Of a stretch of DNA of 64,000 nt, positions 1,939-58,316 are shown piece after piece; positions within the stretch are counted from its first letter, which is position 1; each line of letters begins with the position of its first letter. Under the pieces are notes generated by a model. That model did not search any database. It saw only the letters and a program-made list of their open reading frames with translations, and was not told where the DNA came from. The DNA comes from Gammaproteobacteria bacterium (GTDB lineage Bacteria; Pseudomonadota; Gammaproteobacteria; Eutrophobiales; Eutrophobiaceae): assembly GCA_041984885.1 (NCBI GenBank), contig JBHIXH010000006.1, positions 4,968-68,967 of the forward strand. The letters run 5' to 3'. A program made the translations under genes and the position numbers.

Positions 1939-4137
1939 TTACATCATATCCTGTGGATCAACATCGATAGACCAGCGCACCGAGCGTGTCTGTTTTAATT
2001 GTTCGACCTCTGCCAGCCACGGTCGAAGAAATTGATGCATGGACTGCCTGCTGGCGCTCTGAATGATCAATTGCATTCGGTATCGGCCCGCCTTGCGCGC
2101 CAGCGGCGCTGTTATAGGCCCTATAAGCTGTATGTTGGATTTTTCTGCGTTATCCAGATTTCTGACCGTGCGTAAAAATGACTCCACCTGTTCCGGTTGA
2201 TTGGCCTCGGCACGTAAAACCGACATGAAAATACCTGGTGGTAACCCGGCCTGTTCTCTCTCCTGCAACAAACGCTCGGCAAACGATCGATAACCCTGTT
2301 CGAACAAACATTGCAGCAGGGGATGTTCAGGGAAATTCGTCTGAATGATGACATGGCCTTTTTTGTCGCTGCGTCCGGCGCGACCGCTGACCTGCGTAAC
2401 CAACTGGCCGAGTCGTTCGGTCGCGCGAAAGTCCGTGCTGTACAGGCTGCTGTCGATGTCAACAACTGCGACCAGGGTCACGTTCGGGAAGTGATGACCC
2501 TTGGCCAGCATCTGCGTGCCTACCAGTATATCGGCCTGACCGGACAAGATATTTGCATAGTGTTTTTCCATACTGCCTTTTTGGCGTGTTGTATCGCGAT
2601 CAATGCGTATTATATTTTTACCAGGAAAGTGATCGGCCAGTGTTTCCTCAATGCGCTCAGTCCCATGACCAACCTGGATCAGTTCACCGGAATCACAGCC
2701 CGGACATTTTTCAGGTATTGGGATCTGTTTATCACAATGATGACACCATAAACGTTGCCGACGTTTATGCATGGTCATTAATTTATTGCAACGTTCGCAT
2801 TCAGCCAGCCATTCGCACTCACGACATACCAACGCCGGGGAGTACCCGCGCCGGTTCTGAAATACCAGGACCTGTTCCTGACGGTCCAGCGTTTTACTGA
2901 TCAGGTTTTTCAGTCTGTCCGAGATCGCCTGACTGCCCGCCACTGTCTTCATGTCGTAGATCTCGATGTCGGGTAATGTCGCGTTAGCGGTACGTTCTGT
3001 CAGACGAATTTCACAGTATTGTTTTCGCTTGAGGTTGTGTAACGATTCGAGCGAAGGCGTCGCAGTGCCAAGCACGACAGGACAAGCCGATCGTTTTGCC
3101 CTGACCAGCGCGATATCACGCGCGTTATAGCGAAACCCTTCCTGTTGTTTGTAAGACATGTCATGTTCTTCATCGACAATAAACAAACCGGCAGATGACA
3201 GAGGTATCCAGATCGCTGATCGGGTCCCGAGAATCACATTGACCTTGCCGTCTCTCGCCTCTATCCAGTGGTTCAGCCGTTCACGATCGCTCAAACCGGA
3301 ATGATAAACGGCGACCGCCTGTTCGATACCCGACTGCATACGCTGGATCAGTTGTGGAGTTAATGCGATTTCGGGGACGAGTACGATCACCTGTTTACCG
3401 GCCTGTAGTGTCGCCTTGATCAACCGGATGTAGACCTCGGTCTTGCCGCTACCGGTCACACCATCCAGCAGAAAACCCTGAAACCGGTTTAATGATTGAA
3501 TTATGGTTTGCGTCGCCTGCTGCTGTTCGCTATTGAGCAGAATTTCGTTGTTTGTTTGTATGTCAACCCGAGGTGGAGTCAAGGTTGCGGTTATCAGTTT
3601 TTTTTCCGTTAATGCCTTTAACGCCGACGCAGAATACCTGGTTTCCTGTTTTAACTGTTCATCAGGCAAGCCTTCAGGATATCGCTTCAGATGTTCAAGT
3701 ATGGCAAGTTGTCGCGGACTACGACTCAGGCTGTCAACGTTGTCTGTCCAGCCGTGTTGCGTTACTTTCCATACCGGAGGCCGGTCTATTTCGTCAACGC
3801 GGCCTTTGCGCAACAACGTTGGCAGACTGTTGAATATAACTTCACCGACCGGGTGCTGGTAATAATCGCTGGCCCATTGCAACAGCGCCAACTGCTTTTG
3901 ATTTAATACCGGCCTCGTATCAATATACTTTTCAATATATTTTAATTTTGCCCGCGGAACGTCGGTATGGTCGCTGCCTGAAACTATGATGCCAACGACC
4001 GACCTGCGACCAAATGGCACCTGAACACGTTGGCCGGGTTCAGGCGCTATCTCCGGACCGCTTGCAACGGGCAGGTAATCAAAGACCCGCCGCAGTGGCG
4101 TCGGGATTGCGACCTGGATATAACGGGGTTTTGGCAA
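1939..4137 (-). CDS. priA: Primosomal protein N' (PriA helicase)
   Basis: 732 aa. Walker A motif GVTGSGKTEVY, DEEH box, and CxxC...CxxC zinc-finger pairs typical of PriA. Confidence 0.9.
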   Translation of the reverse strand: MPKPRYIQVAIPTPLRRVFDYLPVASGPEIAPEPGQRVQVPFGRRSVVGIIVSGSDHTDVPRAKLKYIEKYIDTRPVLNQKQLALLQWASDYYQHPVGEVIFNSLPTLLRKGRVDEIDRPPVWKVTQHGWTDNVDSLSRSPRQLAILEHLKRYPEGLPDEQLKQETRYSASALKALTEKKLITATLTPPRVDIQTNNEILLNSEQQQATQTIIQSLNRFQGFLLDGVTGSGKTEVYIRLIKATLQAGKQVIVLVPEIALTPQLIQRMQSGIEQAVAVYHSGLSDRERLNHWIEARDGKVNVILGTRSAIWIPLSSAGLFIVDEEHDMSYKQQEGFRYNARDIALVRAKRSACPVVLGTATPSLESLHNLKRKQYCEIRLTERTANATLPDIEIYDMKTVAGSQAISDRLKNLISKTLDRQEQVLVFQNRRGYSPALVCRECEWLAECERCNKLMTMHKRRQRLWCHHCDKQIPIPEKCPGCDSGELIQVGHGTERIEETLADHFPGKNIIRIDRDTTRQKGSMEKHYANILSGQADILVGTQMLAKGHHFPNVTLVAVVDIDSSLYSTDFRATERLGQLVTQVSGRAGRSDKKGHVIIQTNFPEHPLLQCLFEQGYRSFAERLLQEREQAGLPPGIFMSVLRAEANQPEQVESFLRTVRNLDNAEKSNIQLIGPITAPLARKAGRYRMQLIIQSASRQSMHQFLRPWLAEVEQLKQTRSVRWSIDVDPQDMM

Positions 4138-4149
4138 TCTGGTTCTGGT

Positions 4150-4764
4150 TTATTCAGAAATTTCTGTTTCGATCATTGACTGCAAGCGGTTCGCTTTTAC
4201 CCGTGGCATGGTTTTGCCATCAGTCGGGCTGAGCGGGCTTTGATTCATTTTTTTCAATGGAAACACGGTTAAAGCGACGGCCTGTTCATTGACGAGAAAC
4301 TGGTAGCAAGGGTATATCTGCTCAATACCTGTCTTGAATTTCGCCGGTCTGTCGATCAATTCATACGGGATACCACGGTCATCAAGGAAATAATCCACTT
4401 GTTCGGCATTATCCGTATAGGCAATTAACTGTATGGTTGAATATTCCGTTGCCGTGCCTTTTAACACGGCACCGACAAGAAACGGGTTAAACCCGGCAAA
4501 GAATTGCATTGCCTGCAATGCCAGCCGACGTTTTTTCTGTACCATGCCCGGTTGACTGTCAGACTGAAACAGCTGCTGATAATGGATCAATGCGGTCTCG
4601 ATTTCCCTGTTGCTGGGCAGATGTTTTTGTTCAGTGACGCCGAGGCGCGAGGCCGCTTTCTTCTTCGCGCTGAGATAATCTGACACCCCGTCTACCGCCA
4701 TTAACCTGGCAGCAGTTTGTGCCAGTTCTACACGCACGGTGGAGTCGGTTTTGGTTCGCGACAT
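4150..4764 (-). CDS. Hypothetical protein (conserved ORF between priA and mrcA)
   Basis: 204-aa ORF with good coding compaction and no recognisable motif. Confidence 0.45.
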   Translation of the reverse strand: MSRTKTDSTVRVELAQTAARLMAVDGVSDYLSAKKKAASRLGVTEQKHLPSNREIETALIHYQQLFQSDSQPGMVQKKRRLALQAMQFFAGFNPFLVGAVLKGTATEYSTIQLIAYTDNAEQVDYFLDDRGIPYELIDRPAKFKTGIEQIYPCYQFLVNEQAVALTVFPLKKMNQSPLSPTDGKTMPRVKANRLQSMIETEISE

Positions 4765-4778
4765 TTTTTCTTTGCTGA

Positions 4779-7298
4779 CTAAAACAAATCCGGAACGGTG
4801 TTCGTGGAATTTTCGACATAAGGATCAACAGCCCCCCCGGATGGCAACGTTGATGGTGCGTATTCACTACGAAACACTTCAAACAACGCATCCGTGTCAT
4901 TGGCCGAGGCCGGTTTGCCGGTGCTTTTATTGATACGAACGTTCACCAGTCCATCCGGTCTGGCGAGAATATTTTCCGGTTTTCCCTCCAGCGCGGTCTT
5001 CATGTAATCGATCCACATCGGCAACGCAGCCTGTGCGCCTGTCTCCCGGCTGCCGAGAGGCAGGAATTTATCGAAACCGACCCATGTGATCGCAACCACA
5101 TCGCCGTTAAAACCTGAAAACCAGGCATCGCGTTGATCGTTCGTGGTACCGGTCTTGCCGGACAGATCCCTGCGGCCGAGCGACATTGCCCGACGACCGG
5201 TTCCGGCCGTAATCACATCGCGAGTGATTGAATTCATGATCCAGATGTTACGCGCATCCACGACCCGTTCGGCATAACGTATCGGAGCAGTCTCCGTAGC
5301 AATGTCGGGATCGGGTTCAGCTGTTTCTGTTACCGGTTCTGTATTCTCAATAACGTCAGCAGACATAGGCTCCTCTTCTGTCTCTTCCGCTGCCATCGTT
5401 TCGATACAATGTTCGCAAATGACTTTCGGTTCATAGGTATACACGGTTTCACCGTTCGTATCGACGATCGACTTGATGTAGTGCGGCTCGATCATGAAGC
5501 CGCCGTTGGCAAACACGGAGTAGGCGCGTGCCTGTTCCCACATCGAGATCTCGCCGCTGCCAAGCGACAGAGACAGGTTTTTCGGTAGCCGTTCCGGGTC
5601 AAAGCCGAAGCGTTGTACGTGCTCCAGTGTGAATGGCACACCGATTTTATTCAGCAGGCGTATCGAGACCAGGTTACGTGACTGGGTTAATGCCTCACGC
5701 ATGCGCATCGGGCCCTTGTAATCGTGCCCGTAGTTTTCCGGACGCCATTCATCCTCGATGCCGGGATCGGAAAATACGACCGGTGCGTCATTAAAAATGC
5801 TTGCTGCGGTCTCGCCGGCAGCAAGGGCAGCCGAGTAGATAAATGGTTTGAATCCGGAACCCGGTTGTCGAAACGCTTGCGTGACCCGATTGAATTTACT
5901 GTGGTAAAAATCGAAGCCGCCGACCAGCGCCAGCGTTGCGCCGGTTTTCGGATCAAGTGAAACGAGTCCGCCTTCAACCGCCGGTATTTGCGATAACCGC
6001 CAGTTGCCCTCTGCATCTTCAAGCACACGGACGATATCACCTGTTTGCACGATCTCATCTGCCCGTTTCGGCGCGCCGCCGCGACGGTTTTCAGTGATGT
6101 ATTTACGTGCCCAGGAAAGCCCGCTCCAGTCGATGTCAATTATACCGATGCCGCCCATGTAGACGCCGATCGCCTGTTCAGCAACATGGATAACAAGTCC
6201 CGGGTATAAACCATTCACGACCGAATACTCTTTCAGCAACTGACTCCAGTCGGCCTCGGTCAGATCAGAGCGTAACTCGATATGGTTTTCAGCACCGCGA
6301 TAGCCATGCCGAACGTCATAGTCGAGTAGGGCTTTTTTAACCGCATGGTTCGCTGCAGTCTGGTTGCGGTTGATCAGTGTGGTATAGACATTAAAGCCAC
6401 TGGTGTAGACATCTTCACCATATAACTCGATCAGATCCTTGCGCACCATCTCTGCCACGTAGGGCGCATTCAGTTCTATATCCGTCGAATGCAGGCTTGC
6501 ACTTAATGGCTCAGCACTTGCCTGTTTGAACTCATCTTCATTGATAAATCCGACCTTCAACATACGATCGAGCACGTATTGTCGACGTTGTTTGGCAGCG
6601 TCGGGGTTGGTAATCGGGTTTGTAGACGAGGGAGCTTTCGGCAAGCCGGCCAGCATGGCGGACTGAGCCAACGATAACTCAAACAATTCAGAACCGTAAT
6701 AAACCTGTGCGGCGGCTTGTATGCCATAGGCGCGTTGCCCCAGATAAATTTTATTCAGGTACAGTTCAAGAATTTCGTCCTTGGTTAACTCGCGTTCGAT
6801 CTTGAACGCAAGAAATATTTCGTTCAGTTTGCGCATGTAGGTTTTTTCCCGACTAAGAAAAAAGTTGCGCGCAACCTGCATCGTGATCGTGCTACCACCC
6901 TGTTTTTTCTCCCCGGTTTTCAGCAGTGCAACGACAGCGCGTGTCAGTCCCTGCCAGTCCACGCCGGGATGTGCATAAAAGCGATCATCTTCAGCGGCGA
7001 GGAACGCAAGGATGATCGGTTCGGGTACCTCGTCGATTGCGATCGGGTTGCGCCGTTTCTCACCAAATTCAGCGATCAGTGACTGATCGCTGGAATAGAT
7101 ACGCAGCGGGATTTGTAGCTGAACATCGCGCAAGGTATCGATTTCCGGCAGTTTCGGCACGACAAACCAGGTCAATCCGGCACCAAAAGTGACGATCAGG
7201 GCGAAAAAAAACAACAGACTATAGAAGGTAAAGCGCAACATATTGCGTAGTCTACACGTCAAAAACGCCAGATGTACCGCTTTTGAAGATAATTGCAA
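4779..7298 (-). CDS. mrcA: Penicillin-binding protein 1A (bifunctional transglycosylase/transpeptidase)
   Basis: N-terminal membrane anchor. GT51 motifs (QGGSTITMQVARNFFL). Transpeptidase motifs SGFKP, SxN and KTGT. Confidence 0.9.
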   Translation of the reverse strand: MQLSSKAVHLAFLTCRLRNMLRFTFYSLLFFFALIVTFGAGLTWFVVPKLPEIDTLRDVQLQIPLRIYSSDQSLIAEFGEKRRNPIAIDEVPEPIILAFLAAEDDRFYAHPGVDWQGLTRAVVALLKTGEKKQGGSTITMQVARNFFLSREKTYMRKLNEIFLAFKIERELTKDEILELYLNKIYLGQRAYGIQAAAQVYYGSELFELSLAQSAMLAGLPKAPSSTNPITNPDAAKQRRQYVLDRMLKVGFINEDEFKQASAEPLSASLHSTDIELNAPYVAEMVRKDLIELYGEDVYTSGFNVYTTLINRNQTAANHAVKKALLDYDVRHGYRGAENHIELRSDLTEADWSQLLKEYSVVNGLYPGLVIHVAEQAIGVYMGGIGIIDIDWSGLSWARKYITENRRGGAPKRADEIVQTGDIVRVLEDAEGNWRLSQIPAVEGGLVSLDPKTGATLALVGGFDFYHSKFNRVTQAFRQPGSGFKPFIYSAALAAGETAASIFNDAPVVFSDPGIEDEWRPENYGHDYKGPMRMREALTQSRNLVSIRLLNKIGVPFTLEHVQRFGFDPERLPKNLSLSLGSGEISMWEQARAYSVFANGGFMIEPHYIKSIVDTNGETVYTYEPKVICEHCIETMAAEETEEEPMSADVIENTEPVTETAEPDPDIATETAPIRYAERVVDARNIWIMNSITRDVITAGTGRRAMSLGRRDLSGKTGTTNDQRDAWFSGFNGDVVAITWVGFDKFLPLGSRETGAQAALPMWIDYMKTALEGKPENILARPDGLVNVRINKSTGKPASANDTDALFEVFRSEYAPSTLPSGGAVDPYVENSTNTVPDLF

Positions 7299-47862: not shown

Positions 47863-49473
47863 CTATAAATCAGGCGAGACCGGCGCGGTAAATTGGTTAT
47901 CGGATTCATCGCTGTTTAATGCCTTTTGCAGATTAACGATGATGAAAATTATCAGCAGCGCAAACGGTAAACCGACGGATATGGCGGCGGTCTGTAATGC
48001 AGTCAGGCCGCCGGCGATTAACAGGATGGCAGCTACCAGTCCTTCTGTTATTGACCAGAAGACGCGTTGAACGACAGGCGGGTTGGCATGGCCGCCGGCC
48101 GTGATCATATCGATAACGAGTGAACCGGAATCTGACGACGTGACAAAAAAACTGATGATGACAACGGTCGCAAACGCACCGGCAGTCTTGAGCAGGATAT
48201 CGGGGAAGTTTTCATAACCGACCACGACCGGCAGCTTTTCAAAGAAAACGAACAGGGAACTCGCGACATTTTTTTGCACCGCGCCGACAAGTTCACCAGC
48301 CTGGTTGATCTCAACAAATAATGCGGCGTTACCGAACACGGATAACCAGATAAAGGTCATCAATGTGGCCACGACCAGAACTGCAAAAATAAATTCACGT
48401 ATCGTCCGGCCATAGGAAATACGTGCGACAAACATGCCGACGAACGGTGACCAGGCTATCCACCAGCCCCAGTAAAATACGGTCCAGCCGTTTTGCCAGT
48501 CACCACCGGTGTAGGTTTCATTCCAGAACGCGAGGTAAAAGAATCGATCCAGGTACAGGCCAAGGTTCTCGACAAAGCCATTCAGGATGAACAGCGACGG
48601 CCCGATAATAAATACAAACAGCAACAATAAAATGGCAACGAAAATATTGAACCTGGATAAATTCTGAATGCCACGATCAAGGCCGAGCACTACGGAAAGA
48701 GTCGCAACCGCGGTAATGCCGGTTATCAATAATATTTGTGTCAATGAACTGACCGGTATGCCAAACAGGTGGTCGAGACCGGCATTGATTTGACTGACGC
48801 CAAGACCGAGGGAGGTAGCGACGCCAAACAAGGTTGCCACTGTTGCGATCACATCGATTGCATGACCGTAGAAACCATAAATACGATCACCGAGAACGGG
48901 CTGAAAAATACTACGAATACTGAATGCCTGTTTTCGATTATAGGCAAAGTAGGCGATGGCCAGGCCGGTCAGGGCATAGATCCCCCATGCATGCAGCCCC
49001 CAGTGTAAAAACGTCGTGCTTATTGCATCTTCATACGCTCTCACACTGTAGGGGTTCGCCCCGTGTGGTGGTGTGATCAGGTGGAACACCGGTTCGGCCA
49101 CGGAATAAAACATGAGACCGATGCCCATACCGGCAGAGAACAACATGGCAAACCAGCCAAACCGGGAAAATTGCGGGTTTGCCTGCTTGCCGCCCAGGCG
49201 TATGTTTCCCGCAGGAGAAAATACAAGATAGATCAGGTAGGCCAGAATCAGATTTACGCACAAGACGAAAAACCAGCCGGTCTGGTTCGCTATCCAGGCC
49301 TGGATGGCGTTGATAGATTCAGCCACTGCTGTCAACGATATCAGGCAAACGACCACCAGCAAGGTGATCAGGACGACAGAAGAGAAAAATACAGGCGGAT
49401 TATAACTTAACCAGACGCGATCATGACGATCGCGGTATTCCTGGATTTTCAGTTTTTGATCCGCATCATTCAC
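47863..49473 (-). CDS. BCCT-family betaine/choline/carnitine transporter
   Basis: 536 aa with 12 transmembrane helices and a BCCT Trp-rich signature region (WTVFYWGWWIAWSPFVGMFVARIS). Confidence 0.85.
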   Translation of the reverse strand: MNDADQKLKIQEYRDRHDRVWLSYNPPVFFSSVVLITLLVVVCLISLTAVAESINAIQAWIANQTGWFFVLCVNLILAYLIYLVFSPAGNIRLGGKQANPQFSRFGWFAMLFSAGMGIGLMFYSVAEPVFHLITPPHGANPYSVRAYEDAISTTFLHWGLHAWGIYALTGLAIAYFAYNRKQAFSIRSIFQPVLGDRIYGFYGHAIDVIATVATLFGVATSLGLGVSQINAGLDHLFGIPVSSLTQILLITGITAVATLSVVLGLDRGIQNLSRFNIFVAILLLLFVFIIGPSLFILNGFVENLGLYLDRFFYLAFWNETYTGGDWQNGWTVFYWGWWIAWSPFVGMFVARISYGRTIREFIFAVLVVATLMTFIWLSVFGNAALFVEINQAGELVGAVQKNVASSLFVFFEKLPVVVGYENFPDILLKTAGAFATVVIISFFVTSSDSGSLVIDMITAGGHANPPVVQRVFWSITEGLVAAILLIAGGLTALQTAAISVGLPFALLIIFIIVNLQKALNSDESDNQFTAPVSPDL

Positions 49474-49490
49474 GGAAAAGCCCGGTTTTA

Positions 49491-50330
49491 TCAGTCAGGT
49501 TTTTGATAGTGCATGATACCCCATGCAAGGTAAGAGTTTTTTCCGGCTTCTATCCAGTGCTCAAGACCCTGGATCATGCGCGTGATGTAATCCGGCGAGA
49601 CAAACTGTTCCAGTTCTTCACGACGTGACAGTAACTCCTGCCGTACCCTGCCATAATGCGCGATCAACTGGTGTGTCATCTCGACCTGGCGCAGTTTTTT
49701 CCAGTTCAGTTTTTCTGCTATCGCCAGATAAAACTCAAAAGAACCGAGCGTATCGAGATGAATGCGATCAAGCACTGGTTGTAACACACCGTCCGGACAC
49801 GTATCCGATTGCATCGGGTCAGTAAAGATAAATTCACCACCCGGTTTTAAAACCCGATCAACCTCGTTTAATACCTTTTCGCGCTGACCGGAATGTAATA
49901 TTGCATCCTGTGACCAGGCAACATCAAAAGTGGAATCAGCAATGGACAGATCCTCAAAGCTGCCATCGATCACTTCGATCCTGTTACTGATGCCGAGTTT
50001 TTCATTGATGTCACGGTTGCGTGCATTCTGTGCCTCGCTCAGGTTGACACAGGTGACATTGCAGCCAAACTTATGATGTAGCCAGCGTGCTGCACCACCA
50101 TAACCGGCACCCAGATCAATGACGTTCGAGCCTGGCTGTATGCTTGTCAGCATCCCCGCCATTTTCGCCACGGTACGTTCGGATGCCGCGGCAATGGTGT
50201 CCGTTTCGTCTTCATACAGGCCGATATGTATATCTTCGCCGCCCCAGATGTGGAAGTAGAAATTGTCCGCATCATCGCTGTTGTAATACTCTTGCGCGGT
50301 TTTAACGACTTCTGAATAGTTTGCGTTCAT
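49491..50330 (-). CDS. Sarcosine/dimethylglycine N-methyltransferase (SDMT)
   Basis: Collinear with Halorhodospira halochloris SDMT (YYNSDDADNFYFHIWGGEDIHIGLY...DLGAGYGGAAR...GGEFIFTDPMQ). Confidence 0.85.
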   Translation of the reverse strand: MNANYSEVVKTAQEYYNSDDADNFYFHIWGGEDIHIGLYEDETDTIAAASERTVAKMAGMLTSIQPGSNVIDLGAGYGGAARWLHHKFGCNVTCVNLSEAQNARNRDINEKLGISNRIEVIDGSFEDLSIADSTFDVAWSQDAILHSGQREKVLNEVDRVLKPGGEFIFTDPMQSDTCPDGVLQPVLDRIHLDTLGSFEFYLAIAEKLNWKKLRQVEMTHQLIAHYGRVRQELLSRREELEQFVSPDYITRMIQGLEHWIEAGKNSYLAWGIMHYQKPD

Positions 50331-51139
50331 TAGTCTGTTTGAACATAACTTTTGGATGCCACGTGAATAAAGAAATCAGGCTCCTGGTTTTTAAACGTCT
50401 CCTGAAAATCGCCGTATGTTGTCACCTCCTGAAAGCCGACCTCTTTCATCAGCTTTTGCGTGTATTGCTTGCGCAGAGGAAACATGTTCAGGTGAAACGT
50501 TGCGCCGTCCTTGAATACGTATCGGAACCGCGCCAGGGTTGTATCCATGTGTTCCGGTGTTGCCGTGATCTCTTCGCCACAATAATAATAATTGTGGCCG
50601 GCCTCAATTTTGCCATCCATCAATGCATCGTAGTTTCGTTGATCGAGGATGAGGATACCGTCATGCCGCAGAGTGGCATAATACTCTGCCAGCGTTTTAC
50701 GGCGATCATTTTCATCATGTAAATGTGTAAACGAATTACCGAGGCAGATCACTGCATCGTAAAGATCATGCACGCTTTTGTTTAACCAGCGCCAGTCCGC
50801 ATGTACGGTTCTGAGTATATGTCCACGTTTACGCGCGTTTTCGAATGCCTTTGCCAACATGGCCGGGCTGCCATCGGCACTGGTAACTTCAAAACCGGCT
50901 TCCATCAGTTGTACCGAGTGGTAGCCGGTACCGGTTGCCACGTCGAGGACTTTTTTTGCCCCGTGCTCCTTTAGTATGTCGATAAAAAAGCTGCCTTCGC
51001 TATCGGCACGCCCGTCCCAGTCGATCAGTTCGTCCCATTTATTTACAAACGGGCTGATGTACTCATCGACGTACTTGTCCGAGCTTCGAACCCTGGTCGG
51101 GTTCTTGCCGTAATTCTGTTTCTTCGCTGTCTCAATCAT
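50330..51139 (-). CDS. Glycine/sarcosine N-methyltransferase (GSMT)
   Basis: Collinear with H. halochloris GSMT (DKWDELIDW...KKVLDVATGTGYHSV...SADGSPAML...TVHADWRWLNK). Confidence 0.85.
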   Translation of the reverse strand: MIETAKKQNYGKNPTRVRSSDKYVDEYISPFVNKWDELIDWDGRADSEGSFFIDILKEHGAKKVLDVATGTGYHSVQLMEAGFEVTSADGSPAMLAKAFENARKRGHILRTVHADWRWLNKSVHDLYDAVICLGNSFTHLHDENDRRKTLAEYYATLRHDGILILDQRNYDALMDGKIEAGHNYYYCGEEITATPEHMDTTLARFRYVFKDGATFHLNMFPLRKQYTQKLMKEVGFQEVTTYGDFQETFKNQEPDFFIHVASKSYVQTD

Positions 51140-51760: not shown

Positions 51761-52165
51761 ATGTGCGTTGCTATCAGATTTAAAAATTCCGAGGTGCGCT
51801 GGAACGTAACCGGTGCCGCGTTGCCGGTCATGGATAAGGAATCCGGTGAGATCGTCAGTTATCCGTGGGGGCGACGCGAATGGAACGAGCCCGGCAAGTT
51901 GTATCCGACCGGTTGGGCCCGACGCGAATCCATCGAGCAGGGCAAGTGGCAACGCTTTCATCCGCTGTCTGTTTTTATTGTTGCCGAATCGTTTATGGAG
52001 CGCGATCTCGACAAGCAACCGCACTGGGTCGATTTGCATGCGAGACAATACATCTCCGGTTTGCTTGTTGCATCCGGTGAAGAGAAGCGTGTCTATGTCA
52101 TTACCGTGCCGCCACCGGAGCCTCGTTTCAAACGTTGGCCGGAGATCGTGAATGAAGCTGGATGA
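51761..52165 (+). CDS. Short protein resembling an SOS response-associated peptidase (SRAP, YedK/HMCES family; Cys2 N-terminus); overlaps umuD start
   Basis: Starts MC... with a stop codon 15 nt upstream in frame. Contains RWNVTGAALPV (cf. the SRAP RYNVAPG..PV motif) and WGRREW / WARRESIEQ (cf. WG..P.W, NARxET). Only 134 aa, so truncated or divergent. Confidence 0.4.
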   Translation: MCVAIRFKNSEVRWNVTGAALPVMDKESGEIVSYPWGRREWNEPGKLYPTGWARRESIEQGKWQRFHPLSVFIVAESFMERDLDKQPHWVDLHARQYISGLLVASGEEKRVYVITVPPPEPRFKRWPEIVNEAG

Positions 52166-52577
52166 GTTTATTCTGCCAAAAGCGGAGTTATCCAGGCAGG
52201 AGATTCCGCTACTGGCAACGAAACTGGTCGCCGGGTTTCCCTCAGCCGCCGATGACTTTATTGATCAAAAACTCGATCTGAATGAATTCCTGATCAAGCA
52301 TCCGGCAGCGACCGTGTTTGCCTGGGCCAAGGGCGACTCGCTGATCGGTAAGGGCATATTCAATAATGATTTATTGATCATTGATCGCAGTATCGAACCA
52401 CAACATCACCAGGTCGTCGTCGCTGCGATCAATGGCGAGTTTACCTGCAAGATTCTCGACAAGAAGCAGGGCATGTTACTGGCTGCAAATGCCGAGTTCC
52501 CGCCGATCGATATCAATGGTCACGAGGATGCGTTGATCGAGGGTGTCATTATTCACTCGGTGCGAAGTCATATCTGA
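52152..52577 (+). CDS. umuD: Translesion polymerase V accessory subunit UmuD (S24 LexA-like peptidase)
   Basis: Aligns along its full length with E. coli UmuD (GFPSAADDFIDQKLDLN...GDSLIGKGIFNNDLLIID...INGEFTCK). Confidence 0.85.
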   Translation: MKLDEFILPKAELSRQEIPLLATKLVAGFPSAADDFIDQKLDLNEFLIKHPAATVFAWAKGDSLIGKGIFNNDLLIIDRSIEPQHHQVVVAAINGEFTCKILDKKQGMLLAANAEFPPIDINGHEDALIEGVIIHSVRSHI

Positions 52578-53836
52578 TGTACGCGCTCGTCGACTGCAAC
52601 AGCTTTTACGCATCGTGCGAGCAAATCTTTCGGCCTGATCTGCGTAACCAGCCTGTTGTTGTGTTGAGTAATAACGATGGTTGCATCATTGCGCGGTCAA
52701 AAGAAGCAAAGGCACTCGGTATCCCGGATCTGCATGCGTATTTCAAGGTCAAACCGTTTTTAAAAAAACATAACGTCACCGTGTTCTCGGCCAACTTCTG
52801 TTTGTACGGCGATATCAGCTGGCGGGTGATGGAGACGCTACGACAGTTCAGCCCGGCGACCGAGGTATACAGCATTGATGAGATGTTTGTTGATCTGCAT
52901 GGCAATATTGAACCGCTGGACACGCTGGGCAGAAACATCAAACAGCGTATCTGGCAACATGTACGCATGCCGGTCGGTGTCGGCATTGCACCGACGAAGA
53001 CACTGGCAAAACTGGCGAATCGTGGTGCAAAACATATCGCAAGAACGCAGGGCGTATGCGTACTGGATACAGCGGAGAAATGGCAATGGCTACAACGTCG
53101 TTTACCGGTGGAAAAGGTCTGGGGCGTAGGACAACGCTTTGCCAAACGTTTAAATCGTCTCGGTATATACACGATATTTGACCTGGCGCAGGCTTCAGCA
53201 AAGCGCGTGCGCGAACACAGCAATGTAAACCTGGAACGTACAGTAGAAGAACTGAATGGCGTGCCCTGTTATGCACTGGAAGACGCACATGCGAACAAGA
53301 AACAGATCTACGTCACGCGCTCGTTCGGAAAAAAAGCGACGACATCAGAGGAACTGAGAAACCATATCAGCCGTTATGCCAGTGCAGCCGCCGAGAAATT
53401 GCGTGCGCAAAATTGCAAGGCCAGTGTTGTTACTGTCTTTGTGCAAACCAGCCCGTTTGAAGATAACTATTATGGTAATGCGGTAACGTTACCTTTGCCG
53501 CATCCGACCGATGACAGTCGCGACCTGATCTACCAGGCAAGAAAAATGATTGCCTCGCTGTATCGACCGGGACACCGTTTCCAACGCTGCGGTTTCGGTA
53601 TTGTCGAGATGTTCGATAACACATATCGACAGTTCGATCTGTTTCATTCGGGGCAAACGCAGCAGTCAGAAATAATGATGACGACGCTGGACAGGATCAA
53701 TCGACGCTATGGGCGTGATACCGCTGTGTTTGGTGCGGAAGGACTGCGCGGCAAATGGACGATGCGACAAAACTATCTTTCGCCACGCTACACGACGAGC
53801 TGGAAAGACCTGCCGACAGTGAAGTGTATAAACTGA
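52577..53836 (+). CDS. umuC: Error-prone Y-family DNA polymerase UmuC
   Basis: MYALVDCNSFYASCE N-terminus and SNNDGCIIARS. The start overlaps the umuD stop. Confidence 0.9.
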   Translation: MYALVDCNSFYASCEQIFRPDLRNQPVVVLSNNDGCIIARSKEAKALGIPDLHAYFKVKPFLKKHNVTVFSANFCLYGDISWRVMETLRQFSPATEVYSIDEMFVDLHGNIEPLDTLGRNIKQRIWQHVRMPVGVGIAPTKTLAKLANRGAKHIARTQGVCVLDTAEKWQWLQRRLPVEKVWGVGQRFAKRLNRLGIYTIFDLAQASAKRVREHSNVNLERTVEELNGVPCYALEDAHANKKQIYVTRSFGKKATTSEELRNHISRYASAAAEKLRAQNCKASVVTVFVQTSPFEDNYYGNAVTLPLPHPTDDSRDLIYQARKMIASLYRPGHRFQRCGFGIVEMFDNTYRQFDLFHSGQTQQSEIMMTTLDRINRRYGRDTAVFGAEGLRGKWTMRQNYLSPRYTTSWKDLPTVKCIN

Positions 53837-53852
53837 TATTGCAGTAAACAGT

Positions 53853-54503
53853 ATGCAACAAATACTCGTTTATGCGGACAGTCTGTCATGGGGCATCATC
53901 CCGAAAACGAGGCAGAGATTTCCGTTTGAAAAACGCTGGCCCGGTGTAATGGAAATGCAATTACAGAAAAGCGGTCATGCCGTGCGTGTCATTGAAAACT
54001 GTCTGAATGGACGCAGAACCGTGTGGGACGATCCGTTCAAACCGGGCAGAGATGGTTCGCAGGGGCTGGCCCAGGTCATTGAAATGCATAGCCCGTTGAG
54101 TCTTGTTGTGCTGATGCTGGGCACGAATGATTTTCAATTTGTACACCATAATAATGCCTGGTCATCGGCACAGGGTATGGCAAAGCTCATCTCGATAATA
54201 AAATCAGCACCGATAGAGCCAGGTATGTCGGTGCCGGAGATGTTGATTATTGCGCCGCCAGTCGTGCAGCCAAAAGGTAATATGGTGGAAAAGTTCAGGA
54301 ATGCAGAACAAACAGCTAAAGGTCTGAACGAGGAACTGGAGAAGATAGCGAAAGAACAGGCAGTAGCGTTTTTTGATGCTGGCTCGGTAACAGCGTCAAG
54401 TCATGTCGATGGAGTTCATCTGGACGAGAACCAGCATCAATTACTCGGTGAGTCAGTATGTAGCCAGGTATTAAAATTAAATTGTCTACAGGATGCTAAA
54501 TAA
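53853..54503 (+). CDS. SGNH/GDSL-family hydrolase
   Basis: Block I YADSLSWG (GDSL-type), GTNDF block, and D-x-x-H near the C-terminus (DGVHLD). Confidence 0.7.
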   Translation: MQQILVYADSLSWGIIPKTRQRFPFEKRWPGVMEMQLQKSGHAVRVIENCLNGRRTVWDDPFKPGRDGSQGLAQVIEMHSPLSLVVLMLGTNDFQFVHHNNAWSSAQGMAKLISIIKSAPIEPGMSVPEMLIIAPPVVQPKGNMVEKFRNAEQTAKGLNEELEKIAKEQAVAFFDAGSVTASSHVDGVHLDENQHQLLGESVCSQVLKLNCLQDAK

Positions 54504-54545
54504 ATAATCTGACTCACCCGGGACTGAAACAGGGCGATGCCAATG

Positions 54546-55061
54546 CTATTTACCCAGATGCTGATAACTGAATAAAAATTCATTGCTTTGTAGCGGTGTA
54601 TGACAGGACACACAGTCAAGATCATTCTCTTTAATACCGCCCCTGGCATCATATATCGCATAACCCCAGTCGCCTGTTCTGTTATCCGCGGAGAACTGTG
54701 CATCCCAGTTGTTGCGTTTTTCCATCACTGCGATAGCCGCCAGTTTTGATTTTATAAATAACCCGTCAGCGCCAGTGACAGGATTGCCTGCCTCATCTAC
54801 CTCGGGTTTATAGACTTCCATGACCACAATGGAACCATCAGACAGCTTGCCGTTTTTAATACTTTCAATGGCGGCTTTATTCGCATAGAAATCAGCGACT
54901 TGTTTATTATTTGCACGATTTTGCGTGTGGTACTGAATAAACTGGTTTTTGTAATCTGCAGGAAATGGTACGAATTCCGGGTTGCCACCCGCGTAAGCAA
55001 ACATTGAAACTAATGCAATACAAGTAAAACCGGTTACATACTTCATCAACATGTCCTCCAC
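54546..55061 (-). CDS. Cytochrome P460 / c'-beta family protein (periplasmic, single CxxCH near C-terminus)
   Basis: Signal peptide. About 170 aa with a DCVSCH heme-binding motif 20 residues from the C-terminus. Confidence 0.6.
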   Translation of the reverse strand: MEDMLMKYVTGFTCIALVSMFAYAGGNPEFVPFPADYKNQFIQYHTQNRANNKQVADFYANKAAIESIKNGKLSDGSIVVMEVYKPEVDEAGNPVTGADGLFIKSKLAAIAVMEKRNNWDAQFSADNRTGDWGYAIYDARGGIKENDLDCVSCHTPLQSNEFLFSYQHLGK

Positions 55062-55079
55062 AGGGTGGCACTTTTAATA

Positions 55080-55102
55080 AACATGTATATAATATACATG
55101 TT
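55080..55102. promoter_or_regulatory. Perfect 11-1-11 palindrome matching NsrR (Rrf2) operator architecture
   Basis: AACATGTATAT-a-ATATACATGTT. Compare the E. coli NsrR box AAGATGCATTT-n-AAATGCATCTT. Lies between the divergent P460 and nsrR starts. Confidence 0.6.
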
Positions 55103-55171
55103 AATGGAGTGTAGTGGATGAAAGTAAAGTTGTCCAGATGTAATACGGTTGAATTCGGCAGGTAATGACGT

Positions 55172-55591
55172 ATGCAATTAACGAGGCAGTCTGATTATTC
55201 TTTAAGGGTGCTGATCTACCTGGCCCTGAATCCGGATCGACTTGCGAATATTGCTGAAATCGCCGATGCCTTTAACGTTTCACGAAACCACCTGGTTAAA
55301 GTCGTCCACCAGTTGTCTAAAACGGGATACATACGCACGGTTCGTGGACATGGCGGAGGTATCGAGTTGGCGTATTCTGCAGAAAAGATATCTGTCGGCT
55401 CAATAGTCAGAATGACAGAGAACACGCTTGAAGTGATTAACTGTAAACAACCCGTTTGCCCTATCTTGCCGGCCTGTCGATTAAAAAGAGTGTTGAATGA
55501 AGCAACGGAAGCATTTATGCGAACACTTGACGCTTATACGATCTCTGACTTGATACGAAATAAAAATAAATTAAATCGCTTAATTGCCTGA
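55172..55591 (+). CDS. nsrR: Rrf2-family NO-sensing repressor NsrR
   Basis: Rrf2 HTH (SDYSLRVLIYLA...) and a C-x4-C-x5-C cluster (CKQPVCPILPAC) with NsrR spacing. Confidence 0.8.
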   Translation: MQLTRQSDYSLRVLIYLALNPDRLANIAEIADAFNVSRNHLVKVVHQLSKTGYIRTVRGHGGGIELAYSAEKISVGSIVRMTENTLEVINCKQPVCPILPACRLKRVLNEATEAFMRTLDAYTISDLIRNKNKLNRLIA

Positions 55592-56010
55592 GCTACAAAC
55601 ATCAGGTAAATGAGTGGCAGACGACAGCTGATTTACTATTAAGCTATTTCCCGCTCCTTGCTGAATGCAGTCGGTAATAAAATGGAAAGAGAGAAACAAG
55701 ACAGGGTTGCTAGCGATGGGGATCTGGATCACCAATAGCAGCATCAAGAATGTGATCTGAATAGTTAATATAGCAATTAAAACAGCGGCTTAAGGTATTC
55801 GACCTGTGTTAAAACCCGTATCAATTTAGCTTCATTTCAGATTTCATTAAGTCTCTATTTGACACATTTAAGACCAAATCAGCACTTCAGATTAAATCTA
55901 TATGGTACTTTTCGCTTTCATTATTTAGAAATAGTCATTGTATTATTAATTTTAATAACACTAAGCCATAGGATGTTTATCTTCTTCACTAAAAATATCG
56001 ATCTTAAGCT

Positions 56011-57165
56011 ATGAACCCATTAAAAGTTTTATTAATTGAAGATCAGGGAGATGATGCGAAATTAATCAGAAGGATACTGACCAATAATTTTAACCTGGTT
56101 GAAATTGATCATATCGATGATCTTGACGTCTTTAAACAAAAGATACAGTCAGATAATTACGACATAATCCTGACTGATTACAATTGTGGCAATTTCTCAG
56201 GCATAGACGTAATTACTGAACTGGAAACACTTAATCGGGATATTCCTGTAGTTGTGATTACTGGAGAACATCGCATGGATATAGCAGTAGAAGCAATGAA
56301 ATACCATGTTGATGATTATATCCTTAAGGATTTTAGATGCTTCAAACAATTACCGGAAATAATAAAAAGAGTAATTGATAATCATAATGTTATAAGTGCC
56401 ATAAAAAATTCCGAAAAAAATATCAGTGAATCACTGGGTAATTATATAAACCTTTGTGTGAAATCACCGGAGCTTATAGTAAGCATATGGAATGACGGCT
56501 CTTTTATATCAATTAACACGAATCTTCAGAACATGCTCGGCTATTCAAGAAAAAAAATTAACAGTATGAATTTCAGAGATATTCTTGCTGAAGAATTTCA
56601 TATTGAATTTGATTATGTAATAAAGAATCTCGATCAAAACAAACCAAAAAAAGATGTGGAATTCGCTTTTGTAAATAACGAGGGCGACAAAATTTATGTT
56701 AAAGGCAAAGCCAGCACCCGGATTGAAAATGGAAAGATTATAGGTAGTCACTGGGTACTACATAATATCAGTGAATTTAAAAACCTGGATAATCGGTTAA
56801 TTCAGTCAAACCAGCAATATAAAGTTGTGTTTGAAAATGCATCAGTACCAATGGTTATGGGTGACCATCGTGGAATTGTCCTGCAGATAAACCAGGCGGC
56901 TTGTGCACTCATTGGATATTCCCGGGAAGAAATGCTGGGAAGACATATAAGGTCAATTACACATCCATTGGACATAATTATGAGCCTGATCAATCACAGG
57001 AAACTAACAAGGGGTTTGATAGATAACTATACACTTGTAAAACGATACAAGCATAAAGACGGTCATTATATCAAGGTAGAAGTTACAGCAGTTTTAATCA
57101 GAAACAAGGCAGGTCAACCGTGGTTCGCAATTGCAGAATTCAAAAAGCTTGAACCGGAATCATGA
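56011..57165 (+). CDS. Response-regulator receiver fused to two PAS domains, no output domain (very AT-rich gene)
   Basis: Receiver-domain Asp pocket (ILTDYN..., KD). Two PAS-like repeats. GC well below the window average. Confidence 0.7.
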   Translation: MNPLKVLLIEDQGDDAKLIRRILTNNFNLVEIDHIDDLDVFKQKIQSDNYDIILTDYNCGNFSGIDVITELETLNRDIPVVVITGEHRMDIAVEAMKYHVDDYILKDFRCFKQLPEIIKRVIDNHNVISAIKNSEKNISESLGNYINLCVKSPELIVSIWNDGSFISINTNLQNMLGYSRKKINSMNFRDILAEEFHIEFDYVIKNLDQNKPKKDVEFAFVNNEGDKIYVKGKASTRIENGKIIGSHWVLHNISEFKNLDNRLIQSNQQYKVVFENASVPMVMGDHRGIVLQINQAACALIGYSREEMLGRHIRSITHPLDIIMSLINHRKLTRGLIDNYTLVKRYKHKDGHYIKVEVTAVLIRNKAGQPWFAIAEFKKLEPES

Positions 57166-57216
57166 AAATCCACTAATGAAAATCTTTCCAGGTTATGTAA
57201 AGGAGTCGATTAAAAT

Positions 57217-57330
57217 TGGTGGCTATGGGTGGATTTGACAATTTTGTCGGGAACAAAATTGGGCAAACGTAGTTTGCCCTAAGGGTGAAATACAAGGACG
57301 TATTTCATCAGCTACCGACATCAGCATTAT
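57217..57330. repeat. Interrupted direct repeat of the 3'-terminal 42 nt of tRNA-Met (att-like), split by a 73-bp insertion
   Basis: 57217-57238 matches 58114-58135 (22 nt, 1 mismatch). 57312-57330 matches 58137-58155 (19 nt, 1 mismatch). The insertion at 57239-57311 carries the hairpin gggcaaac-gtag-tttgccc. Confidence 0.6.
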
Positions 57331-57477
57331 CAAATAGCATTTCAACGTCCATAGAGTTTTGATGAGAAAAAAGTCAATTAGTATCTGGCCTGTTAATATA
57401 CGCAGTATTAGATTCAGGCAGGATTGCAGGCTTCTTGTATTAAATTCTGTCTCGTACAGAAGAAAGAATTTTATTAC

Positions 57478-57984
57478 TTAAGGAGTAATAAATTCTTTAG
57501 CTGATTTTTCTGCATGATGCATTTGATTTGGGAATAATTTGTGTTCCTCGGATAGTGCTTTCATATGTTTGCGTGCATTTTTGTTGCCTTGTTTATGGGC
57601 CGCAAAAAACCACATGTAAGCAGTTGTAAAATCTCTTTCAGTATTCTCGCCATTTTCATACATTTTCCCCAGGTTATATTGGGCATCGGCATGCCCGCTT
57701 TTCGCAGCTAGTTCAAACCAGTGCATGGCTTTCCTGAAATTTCTTTTTACCCCGAGCCCAAGATAGTAATGTATACCAATATAATTTTGAGCTTCTGAGT
57801 TTCCAGAGTTCGCTAACGGAAACCAAAGTTCATAAGACCTCTCATAATTGCCCTTTCTGAATTCAGTTAATGGATCTGTACCTTCGTAACAGGACAATAT
57901 CGTGACAGCCAGGAGTAAAATAACAAACAATTGATGCACAATTATAAAACCCAATTGATATTGGCTCGATGAAGTTGACGCCAC
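57478..57984 (-). CDS. Sel1-repeat (TPR-like) protein with N-terminal TM helix
   Basis: Repeated Sel1-like units (AQNYIGIHYYLGLGVKRNFRKAMHWFELAAKSGHADAQYNLGKMYENG). AT-rich. Confidence 0.65.
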   Translation of the reverse strand: MASTSSSQYQLGFIIVHQLFVILLLAVTILSCYEGTDPLTEFRKGNYERSYELWFPLANSGNSEAQNYIGIHYYLGLGVKRNFRKAMHWFELAAKSGHADAQYNLGKMYENGENTERDFTTAYMWFFAAHKQGNKNARKHMKALSEEHKLFPNQMHHAEKSAKEFITP

Positions 57985-58113
57985 TAATGAATTATAGCGC
58001 GATGTATTTTTTCGTTATTAGATTAATTCATTTTCAGATTTAGCTAATTTCAATATACAGGTAAAGATTACATTAAAAGATTAAAGAGAAATTGAGACAT
58101 TGGAAAAGAAATT

Positions 58114-58190
58114 TGGTGGCTATGGGTGGACTTGAACCACCGACATCAGCATTATGAATGCTGCGCTCTAACCGACTGAGCTACATAGCC
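58114..58190 (-). tRNA. tRNA-Met (anticodon CAT, elongator type)
   Basis: The reverse complement folds as a canonical cloverleaf (GGCTATG acceptor, GCTC/GAGC D-stem, CAGCA/TGCTG anticodon stem, loop TTCATAA, GGTGG/CCACC T-stem, CCA end). Closest to E. coli elongator tRNA-Met. Confidence 0.9.
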
Positions 58191-58316
58191 ATGAGATCAG
58201 CTAATAGCTAGCAGGTAGTAGCCATTAGTGCAGGGAACGGGATTTTCTGTACTCGGTGTGGGCTTGTCAAGTTTGGATTACCGGAGTTCTTCCAACACCT
58301 CCTTCAGGAGGCTCAG

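Follow-up and report, generated by a model that had tools for sequence, protein, structure and literature searches.

A cytochrome c'-beta-Met gene paired with nsrR across a predicted NsrR operator in a gammaproteobacterial contig

Introduction

The subject of this analysis is a divergent gene pair in a 64,000-nucleotide stretch of a gammaproteobacterial contig (JBHIXH010000006.1 of assembly GCA_041984885.1; the whole stretch is referred to here as the window), where a gene for a small secreted haem protein and a gene for an Rrf2-family regulator are separated by a perfect 23-bp palindrome. The locus is probably a two-gene nitric oxide (NO) response module, in which the regulator NsrR would repress both a periplasmic NO-handling cytochrome and its own gene, and in which NO would relieve this repression. 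On its profile match and its diagnostic residues, the haem protein is assigned to the P460 superfamily as a cytochrome of the c'-beta-Met type, and not as a true cytochrome P460.

That NsrR regulates genes through 11-1-11 operators is textbook knowledge, and the regulatory logic proposed here is itself standard; what is new is the haem gene, as a predicted member of a regulon of the NsrR type. No P460-superfamily gene was found as an NsrR target in those of the searched papers that name both NsrR and P460, nor in the regulon text and tables of Rodionov et al. (PMC1274295). Cytochrome c'-beta (CytS) is reported to be present in all sequenced ammonia oxidisers and in comammox Nitrospira and to have been detected in ammonia-oxidising methanotrophs, and its role in cells 'remains elusive' (PMC6967387). 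The Met/Arg variant has been described in a 2025 review as a 'half-way house' protein of undetermined function (PMC11928373).

Organization of the locus

A preliminary description of this DNA had reported a P460-family haem gene divergent from an Rrf2 gene with a perfect 23-bp inverted repeat between them, an arrangement that is confirmed by the profile matches and by the sequence itself. The features of the locus are as follows.

54546 to 55046, minus strand: c'-beta-Met haem gene, with an ATG start at 55046 and a product of 166 aa (matches to Pfam PF16694 and to structure 7S5O).
55055 to 55059, minus strand: Shine-Dalgarno sequence GGAGG, 8 nt before ATG 55046 and a conserved block in the intergenic alignment described below.
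55065 to 55093, plus strand: candidate nsrR promoter from a consensus scan (10 of 12 positions), with -35 GTGGCA and with -10 TATAAT at the palindrome centre.
55080 to 55102, no strand: predicted NsrR operator AACATGTATATaATATACATGTT, a perfect 11-1-11 palindrome between the haem gene and nsrR.
55108 to 55136, minus strand: putative sigma-70 promoter of the haem gene from a consensus scan, with -35 TGGACA at 55136-55131 and -10 TACACT at 55113-55108.
55172 to 55591, plus strand: nsrR, encoding an Rrf2-family protein of 139 aa (Pfam Rrf2, 129 bits).
55442 to 55444, 55457 to 55459 and 55475 to 55477, plus strand: codons of the NsrR cluster ligands C91, C96 and C102, from alignment to NsrR proteins.

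The haem gene likely starts at ATG 55046 (MKYV..., 166 aa), because GGAGG lies 8 nt upstream of this codon and because a 100% identical 166-aa protein in the database, together with homologues of 166-167 aa, has the same beginning; the GTG at 55061 from which the gene had been listed is less likely. This start leaves 33 nt between the operator and the haem gene, and not about 20 nt as in the preliminary description, whose distance of about 70 bp to nsrR agrees with the 69 nt counted to the nsrR ATG.

The predicted operator and its promoters

Two perfect 11-1-11 palindromes are present in the 64-kb window, as compared with 0.03 expected from shuffled sequence, and no second copy of the palindrome upstream of the haem gene was found in the window at up to 3 mismatches or in 100 shuffles. 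The site was scored with a symmetrised matrix built from 26 distinct 11-1-11 NsrR sites of E. coli CFT073 (PMC5320621, Table 4), some of which are predictions without a peak in chromatin immunoprecipitation sequencing (ChIP-seq). The palindrome scores 25.0 bits with this matrix, where the median of the matrix sites is 19.5 bits and where 200 shuffled windows gave a best score of 21.4 bits and a mean maximum of 12.9 bits. The NsrR motif given by Rodionov et al. is gATGyAT-N5-ATrCATc (PMC1274295), and the window site reads cATGTAT-ATAAT-ATACATg, so that the core fits ATGyAT-N5-ATrCAT and the outer bases are C/G-swapped (cATG...CATg as opposed to gATG...CATc). Its right half-site ATATACATGTT is identical to the right half-site of the E. 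coli hcp operator. Judged by this fit to published NsrR operators, which bears out the 11-1-11 architecture proposed earlier, the palindrome would be recognised by NsrR as the type of motif that fronts NO-metabolism genes. The other perfect 11-1-11 palindrome of the window, CAGCGATCAGTGACTGATCGCTG at 7070-7092, is GC-rich and not NsrR-like, and lies inside an open reading frame (ORF) at 4779-7298 (minus strand).

With the operator beginning 5 nt past the putative -10 of the haem promoter, the predicted transcription start falls within it. On the nsrR side, the only promoter candidate is the one whose -10 lies inside the palindrome, and no conserved nsrR promoter was found among the relatives.

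The regulator

The nsrR product matches the Rrf2 winged-helix family both in Pfam (PF02082, 129 bits) and in TIGR00738 (125.5 bits, with a cut-off of 73.3). Along its full length it shares 46% identity with NsrR of E. coli K-12 (the annotated nsrR gene), with a nearly identical recognition helix (VSRNHLVKVVHQLS in the window protein and VSRNHMVKIINQLS in E. coli NsrR), and its cysteines C91, C96 and C102 align with C91, C96 and C102 of the E. coli protein; the C-x4-C-x5-C spacing of the preliminary description is thereby upheld. The best solved relative is NsrR of Streptomyces coelicolor, in which Asp8 and Cys93/99/105 hold the [4Fe-4S] cluster and its state is linked to DNA binding by way of Arg12 and Glu85 (PMC11500311). 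The corresponding residues of the window protein are D8, R12, E83, C91, C96 and C102, and from this alignment the three cysteines and the Asp8 of the partner subunit are predicted to serve as ligands of a [4Fe-4S] cluster.

The haem protein

The haem protein matches Pfam Cytochrome_P460 (PF16694) at 85.6 bits, as compared with a cut-off of 27, over profile positions 1-125 of 125. By a wide margin, its closest solved structure is 7S5O, the cytochrome c'-beta-Met of Nitrosomonas europaea (NeCP-beta; E 3.5e-51, about 57% identity), and the structures of true P460 proteins match it marginally (E 0.01-0.05). Residues were compared in an alignment of 34 homologues (A1), and the positions of interest are the following.

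54600 to 54614, minus strand: haem c motif CVSCH (Cys145, Cys148, His149), read from the sequence and invariant in A1.
54819 to 54821, minus strand: codon of Met76, which stands where true P460 has the cross-linking Lys; its counterparts are Met79 in 7S5O and Phe61 in McCP-beta, and it is invariant in the 34 homologues.
54915 to 54917, minus strand: codon of Arg44, the distal cap; equivalent to Arg46 in NeCP-beta (Table 2 of PMC11928373) and invariant in A1.
54990 to 55046, minus strand: predicted Sec signal peptide MKYVTGFTCIALVSMFAYA, read from the sequence, with cleavage before GGNPEF.

The predicted cleavage AYA|GGNPEF gives a mature protein that begins where the crystallised chain of 7S5O begins, and the AxA|GG motif is conserved in A1. 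A single C-terminal CxxCH motif is present (C145-V-S-C148-H149). In proteins of this superfamily, the cross-link residue is Lys70 in NeP460, Lys78 in McP460 and Lys106 in NsP460, as opposed to Met79 in NeCP-beta and Phe61 in McCP-beta; the distal carboxylate is Glu96 in NeP460 and Asp102 in McP460, where NsP460 has Ala131, NeCP-beta has Ala109 and McCP-beta has Gly82; and the cap residue is Phe, Arg and Phe in true P460, Arg46 in NeCP-beta and Phe32 in McCP-beta (PMC11928373, Table 2). The window protein has Ala106 at the position of the distal carboxylate (equivalent to Ala109 of NeCP-beta and invariant in the 34 homologues), and alignment of its DGSIVVMEV with DGTVTVKEL of NeP460 (2JE2) puts Met76 at the Lys position, a register that is fixed because a second P460-family gene in one relative (L085) keeps the Lys in DGTVLVKAV. 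It has neither the cross-linking Lys nor the distal carboxylate of P460 sensu stricto, and its Met at the cross-link position, Arg cap and lack of a carboxylate are those of the Met subtype of c'-beta.

As the distal carboxylate is needed for oxidation of NH2OH (PMC11928373), and because the Lys and the distal Glu/Asp are replaced by Met76 and Ala106, hydroxylamine oxidation is not expected of the window protein. NeCP-beta does not oxidise hydroxylamine and has a canonical c-haem spectrum; with H2O2 it forms a ferryl species and shows weak peroxidase activity (PMC11928373). Thus, of the description of the haem protein as a hydroxylamine- or NO-reactive P460, the Pfam family stands, and the part that made it a genuine, hydroxylamine-reactive P460 does not.

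The second P460-family gene of L085 (positions 3165-3770; GCA_025450675.1, JAOBKB010000113.1) encodes 201 aa and lies just upstream of the nsrR/c'-beta-Met pair of that genome. Its product has N. europaea cytochrome P460 (2JE2) as its best match and keeps the cross-linking Lys, which makes it a candidate for a true P460 in a non-nitrifier context.

Conservation in relatives

When species-representative genomes were scanned with a profile, 80 loci for relatives of the haem protein were obtained, with gammaproteobacterial and Thiotrichaceae metagenome-assembled genomes (MAGs) among their sources. An adjacent, divergent Rrf2 gene is found in only two groups of these loci, namely in the gammaproteobacterial MAGs that are closest to the window (L002, L003, L004) and in Entotheonella/Tectimicrobiota (L066, L071, L073). 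Further haem-protein homologues (P0004, P0005) and NsrR homologues (P0109, P0127, P0111) added the loci L085/86, L087/88, L092-94, L095/96 and L097, and all of the close NsrR homologues examined are divergently paired with a P460-family gene. The divergence of nsrR and haem gene, together with the palindrome, is present in seven gammaproteobacterial lineages (the window, L002/L092-94, L003, L004/L095-96, L085/86, L087/88 and L097), where the palindrome scores 15.7-26.3 bits. When six of the intergenic regions were aligned, the -35 and -10 hexamers of the haem promoter, the palindrome and the ribosome-binding site were the sole conserved blocks, and the flanks had diverged.

The setting of the pair in several of these relatives is that of NO metabolism. 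In L002, L092-94 and L097, the haem gene is followed in order by a cupin-like gene of about 108 aa, norC, norB and norQ, and past norQ in L092-94 and L097 there are a 132-aa ORF and a gene for a VWA protein that is norD-like. In these same relatives nnrS is convergent on nsrR and a gene for cd1 nitrite reductase (nirS) lies nearby; no second box was found before norC in L002. In L001, an identical palindrome lies between nsrR and a cytochrome c/COX1 pair (norC-norB), and a c'-beta gene, a cupin gene and nnrS adjoin nsrR-norCB without a box. The palindrome tracks nsrR rather than the haem gene. Because these neighbours are canonical NsrR-regulon genes, they support both the identity of the regulator and the link between the haem protein and NO.

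At the Entotheonella loci, the same pairing occurs with a related repeat, AACATGTA-N7-TGCATGTT. An operator-like repeat, AACAGGTA-N7-TGCATGTT, is kept upstream of the c'-beta-Met gene in L063, L073 and L075 (approximately 3400-3915), where the adjacent Rrf2 gene is split in L073, an N-terminal remnant in L075 and absent in L063; this may reflect decay of the regulator gene or assembly errors.

The cupin-like protein of about 108 aa, which has a weak Cupin_2 match, almost always follows the c'-beta-Met gene in relatives (L002 4510-4836; L001 4468-4797; L085 5585-5827; L092-L097 approximately 4046-4372) and is 56% identical between L001 and L002, and it may be a conserved partner of the c'-beta-Met gene. 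One MAG contig of 2.75 Mb (ERZ25074583 ctg10007; L083/L084 and L093) carries two c'-beta-Met paralogues about 70 kb apart, of which copy 1 lies beside cupin, nnrS, dsrEFH-like and sulfite-reductase-like genes without an NsrR box, and copy 2 lies beside nsrR, the box and norCBQD. The copy linked to NsrR has a gene call of just 98 aa in L092 and L093, and may be truncated or miscalled.

Proposed mechanism

The features described above suggest a mechanism in which the nsrR product is an Rrf2-family repressor that, by homology, would carry a [4Fe-4S] cluster on Asp8, Cys91, Cys96 and Cys102, and whose holo-dimer would bind the 23-bp palindrome at 55080-55102. The palindrome lies just past the -10 of the putative haem promoter, across the predicted transcription start, and also holds the -10-like TATAAT that points toward nsrR; because of this double overlap, bound NsrR would be expected to block transcription of the haem gene and probably of nsrR as well. 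NO would then nitrosylate the cluster, leading NsrR to leave the DNA and allowing both genes to be expressed. The exported product is predicted to have a P460 fold with an ordinary, five-coordinate c-haem that is not cross-linked to Lys and whose distal face is capped by Arg. Most likely, as far as its sequence and setting indicate, the cytochrome acts in the periplasm on NO, or on an oxidant derived from NO, by binding, buffering or converting it, and in relatives with an NO reductase (cNOR) it may pass NO to the reductase.

Weighing of the readings

Several findings weigh against the reading of the locus as an NsrR-controlled NO module. In 72 of the 80 c'-beta-Met loci, all of the Nitrosomonas loci included, an Rrf2 neighbour and a strong box are both lacking. 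Since most c'-beta-Met loci have no such regulator and box, the link between nsrR and the haem gene is lineage-specific; the lack of NsrR boxes before c'-beta-Met genes in Nitrosomonas and most other loci is a weak negative, as the NsrR motif of N. europaea may differ. A paralogous or orthologous c'-beta-Met gene without a box occurs in L001 and L083. For NeCP-beta, the closest protein that has been characterised, the one reported activity is peroxidase-like and not NO turnover (PMC11928373). The regulator scores 158.1 bits with the NCBIfam NsrR equivalog NF008240, which is under the cut-off of 182; this shortfall is taken to reflect its distance, at 46% identity, from E. coli NsrR. The nsrR promoter assignment is weak, because its -35 is not conserved in relatives. 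Finally, a matrix scan of the 64-kb window for further regulon members gave no site above chance (the runner-up scores 13.2 bits, as compared with the shuffle mean maximum of 12.9), and tblastn with the norC, norB, nnrS and cupin homologues of relatives gave no match in it; since it lacks a further NsrR box and any nor, nnrS, hmp-like or cupin partner gene, the window does not give the regulon context of the organism.

Beyond the two-gene module, a broader proposal can be put forward only tentatively. In it, c'-beta-Met would be the primary conserved NsrR target and the leader of the cNOR operon in a clade of sulfur-oxidising, denitrifying gammaproteobacteria, and independently so in Entotheonella; it would serve as a dedicated periplasmic partner of NO reductase for capture or hand-over of NO, and the unit in the window, which lies in a low-GC stretch from umuDC to a tRNA-Met gene, would be a mobile, stripped-down two-gene cassette.

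The main rival concerns the function of the cytochrome and leaves its control by NsrR in place. Here the protein would be a periplasmic peroxidase or peroxynitrite scavenger that removes H2O2 or ONOO- under NO stress, and not a binder or carrier of NO. NeCP-beta not only forms its ferryl species with H2O2 but turns over guaiacol as a peroxidase with a kcat of about 20 per second, and its Arg cap resembles that of chlorite dismutase (PMC11928373), a residue that is invariant as Arg44 in the clade of the window protein. That peroxidase rate is low compared with true peroxidases (PMC11928373), however, and the gene in relatives leads norCBQD beside nnrS and nirS, which points to NO itself, whereas no conserved link to peroxide-stress genes was seen at the loci examined. 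Scavenging of peroxide or peroxynitrite is a rather doubtful, if serious, account of the cytochrome.

It is also conceivable, but unlikely, that the Rrf2 protein is another Fe-S or redox regulator (RirA-, RsrR- or IscR-like) with a similar palindrome, in which case the haem gene would answer iron or redox status. This reading draws on the missed NsrR equivalog (158 as opposed to 182 bits), on a RirA score of 125 bits and on the name 'Rrf2 family transcriptional regulator', which is all that NCBI gives to the close homologues, many of which carry the JGI name 'nitric oxide-sensitive transcriptional repressor'. In the NCBIfam ranking, however, NsrR is clearly the best model at 158.1 bits, followed by RirA at 125, with IscR far behind at 56 and 42. 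The identity to E. coli NsrR, the shared cysteine spacing and recognition helix, and a palindrome that scores as a strong E. coli NsrR site also argue for NsrR, as does the fact that in relatives the operator and regulator sit with norCB, nnrS and nirS, the classic genes of NsrR regulons. The earlier assignment of the regulator to NsrR rather than to IscR is in agreement with these results, which place it apart from RirA as well. With the haem protein falling in Pfam P460, and not in an unrelated cytochrome c family, none of the outcomes that would have contradicted the earlier account was encountered.

That the product is a true cytochrome P460, oxidising hydroxylamine to NO or N2O under NsrR control, is very improbable. 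The Pfam Cytochrome_P460 match and the genuine-type P460 gene near the module in one relative (L085 3165-3770, Lys kept) speak for it, but Met76 and Ala106 occupy the Lys and carboxylate positions and are both invariant in the clade, and all cross-link-deficient P460 proteins tested so far have been inactive, NeCP-beta showing no NH2OH oxidation (PMC11928373).

Equally hard to credit is a palindrome unrelated to NsrR (an AT-rich repeat that arose by chance, a site for some other factor, or an RNA hairpin): intergenic AT-rich DNA is prone to palindromes, and the exact palindrome, when looked for in metagenome contigs, turned up at three loci and gave no new regulon members, two of the three being unrelated to the L002 population that is the third (a Bacillus-like contig with spore-coat genes, and non-coding AT-rich DNA inside a longer hairpin), but perfect 11-1-11 palindromes arise at 0.03 per window in shuffles, the site outscores the median of the E. 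coli matrix sites, and it is kept across lineages with diverged flanks and stays with nsrR when the partner is norCB.

Genomic surroundings

The neighbours of the pair in the window are umuDC, a GDSL hydrolase gene, genes for a response regulator with PAS domains, a Sel1 protein and a Crp-family regulator, and OsmC. Across 54300-58200, guanine plus cytosine (GC) content is below that of the surroundings: the c'-beta-Met gene and nsrR are at 42-43%, the response regulator gene (56011-57165) and the Sel1 gene (57478-57984) are at 31-38%, and the flanks are at about 49-55%. The limits of the low-GC stretch are marked by umuDC (52152-53836) and by a tRNA-Met gene (58114-58190, minus strand), and the stretch may have been horizontally acquired. 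A partial copy of the 3' part of this tRNA gene, 93-95% identical to it, lies about 0.9 kb away, and the two copies bracket the Sel1-repeat gene, as follows.

57212 to 57238: repeat paired with 58109 to 58135.
57314 to 57333: repeat paired with 58139 to 58158.

They resemble the att-type repeats of a small integrated element, or alternatively what is left of a second tRNA copy that has decayed. Elsewhere in the window (47863-51139), a BCCT betaine/choline-type transporter gene lies beside two genes for S-adenosylmethionine-dependent methyltransferases; together they resemble a cluster for glycine-betaine synthesis and uptake, which suggests a salt-adapted host.

Significance

The genomic context, with its adjacent NO sensor, its conserved operator and the same gene leading norCBQD in relatives, argues for work on NO in the periplasm. 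This supports the prevailing hypothesis that c'-beta cytochromes handle nitrogen oxides, and does not overturn it. If c'-beta-Met is indeed a primary NsrR target and cNOR leader, the pairing would be the first lead from regulation to what CytS does in cells. The pair also offers a simple test system, made up of a single repressor, a 23-bp site and a small secreted cytochrome.

Comparison with known systems

The 11-1-11 operators of E. coli NsrR (at ytfE, hcp and hmp) were reportedly described by Partridge in 2009. The window system is like that of E. coli in its regulator family (46% identity), cysteine spacing, recognition helix and 23-bp 11-1-11 operator. It is different in its target, a periplasmic cytochrome of the P460 fold that appears neither in the published E. 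coli regulon lists nor in those of Rodionov. Its nsrR also lies divergent from the target gene and is probably autoregulated, whereas the E. coli gene is found in an nsrR-rnr context.

Small NsrR regulons have been described elsewhere. In Legionella, glbN-lpg2536 is a predicted NsrR target (Rodionov 2005, PMC1274295), and in Streptomyces coelicolor NsrR targets hmpA1 and hmpA2 together with its own gene. The window system resembles these in that NsrR would preside over one or two NO-handling haem proteins; their targets, however, are cytoplasmic globins or flavohaemoglobins that dioxygenate NO, as opposed to the periplasmic c-type cytochrome seen here.

In Neisseria and Ralstonia, NsrR controls norB, and in Neisseria aniA/nirK as well. 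This is like the arrangement in relatives of the window, where the operator precedes norCB either directly (L001) or by way of an operon led by c'-beta-Met (L002, L097). The window itself differs, having no nor genes within 64 kb, and the Neisseria motif has T/A at the G4/C16 positions (PMC1274295).

Another periplasmic example is the cytochrome c'-alpha (CycP) of Rhodobacter sphaeroides, a five-coordinate, NO-binding cytochrome that has been proposed as an NO carrier to the membrane NO reductase (PMC11928373, citing Choi 2005). The likeness is an analogy of function only, as CycP is a four-helix bundle whose fold is unrelated to that of the window cytochrome.

With P460 sensu stricto (CytL, 2JE2/2JE3; M. 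capsulatus, 6HIU), the window protein shares its Pfam family, beta-sheet fold family, C-terminal CxxCH and periplasmic location. Unlike these proteins, which it matches at E 0.01-0.05, it has Met76 in place of the cross-link Lys and Ala106 in place of the distal Glu/Asp.

The cytochrome c'-beta-Met of N. europaea (CytS, NE0824, 7S5O) is about 57% identical to the window protein over the mature chain and shares its Met, Arg and Ala positions, its C-terminal CxxCH and its signal peptide. The host here, however, is apparently a non-nitrifying gammaproteobacterium, whose relatives carry dsr, nirS and nor genes. Unlike the N. europaea CytS locus (L035) and other Nitrosomonas loci, which have no adjacent Rrf2 gene or strong box, the c'-beta-Met gene described here is paired with nsrR and with its predicted operator.

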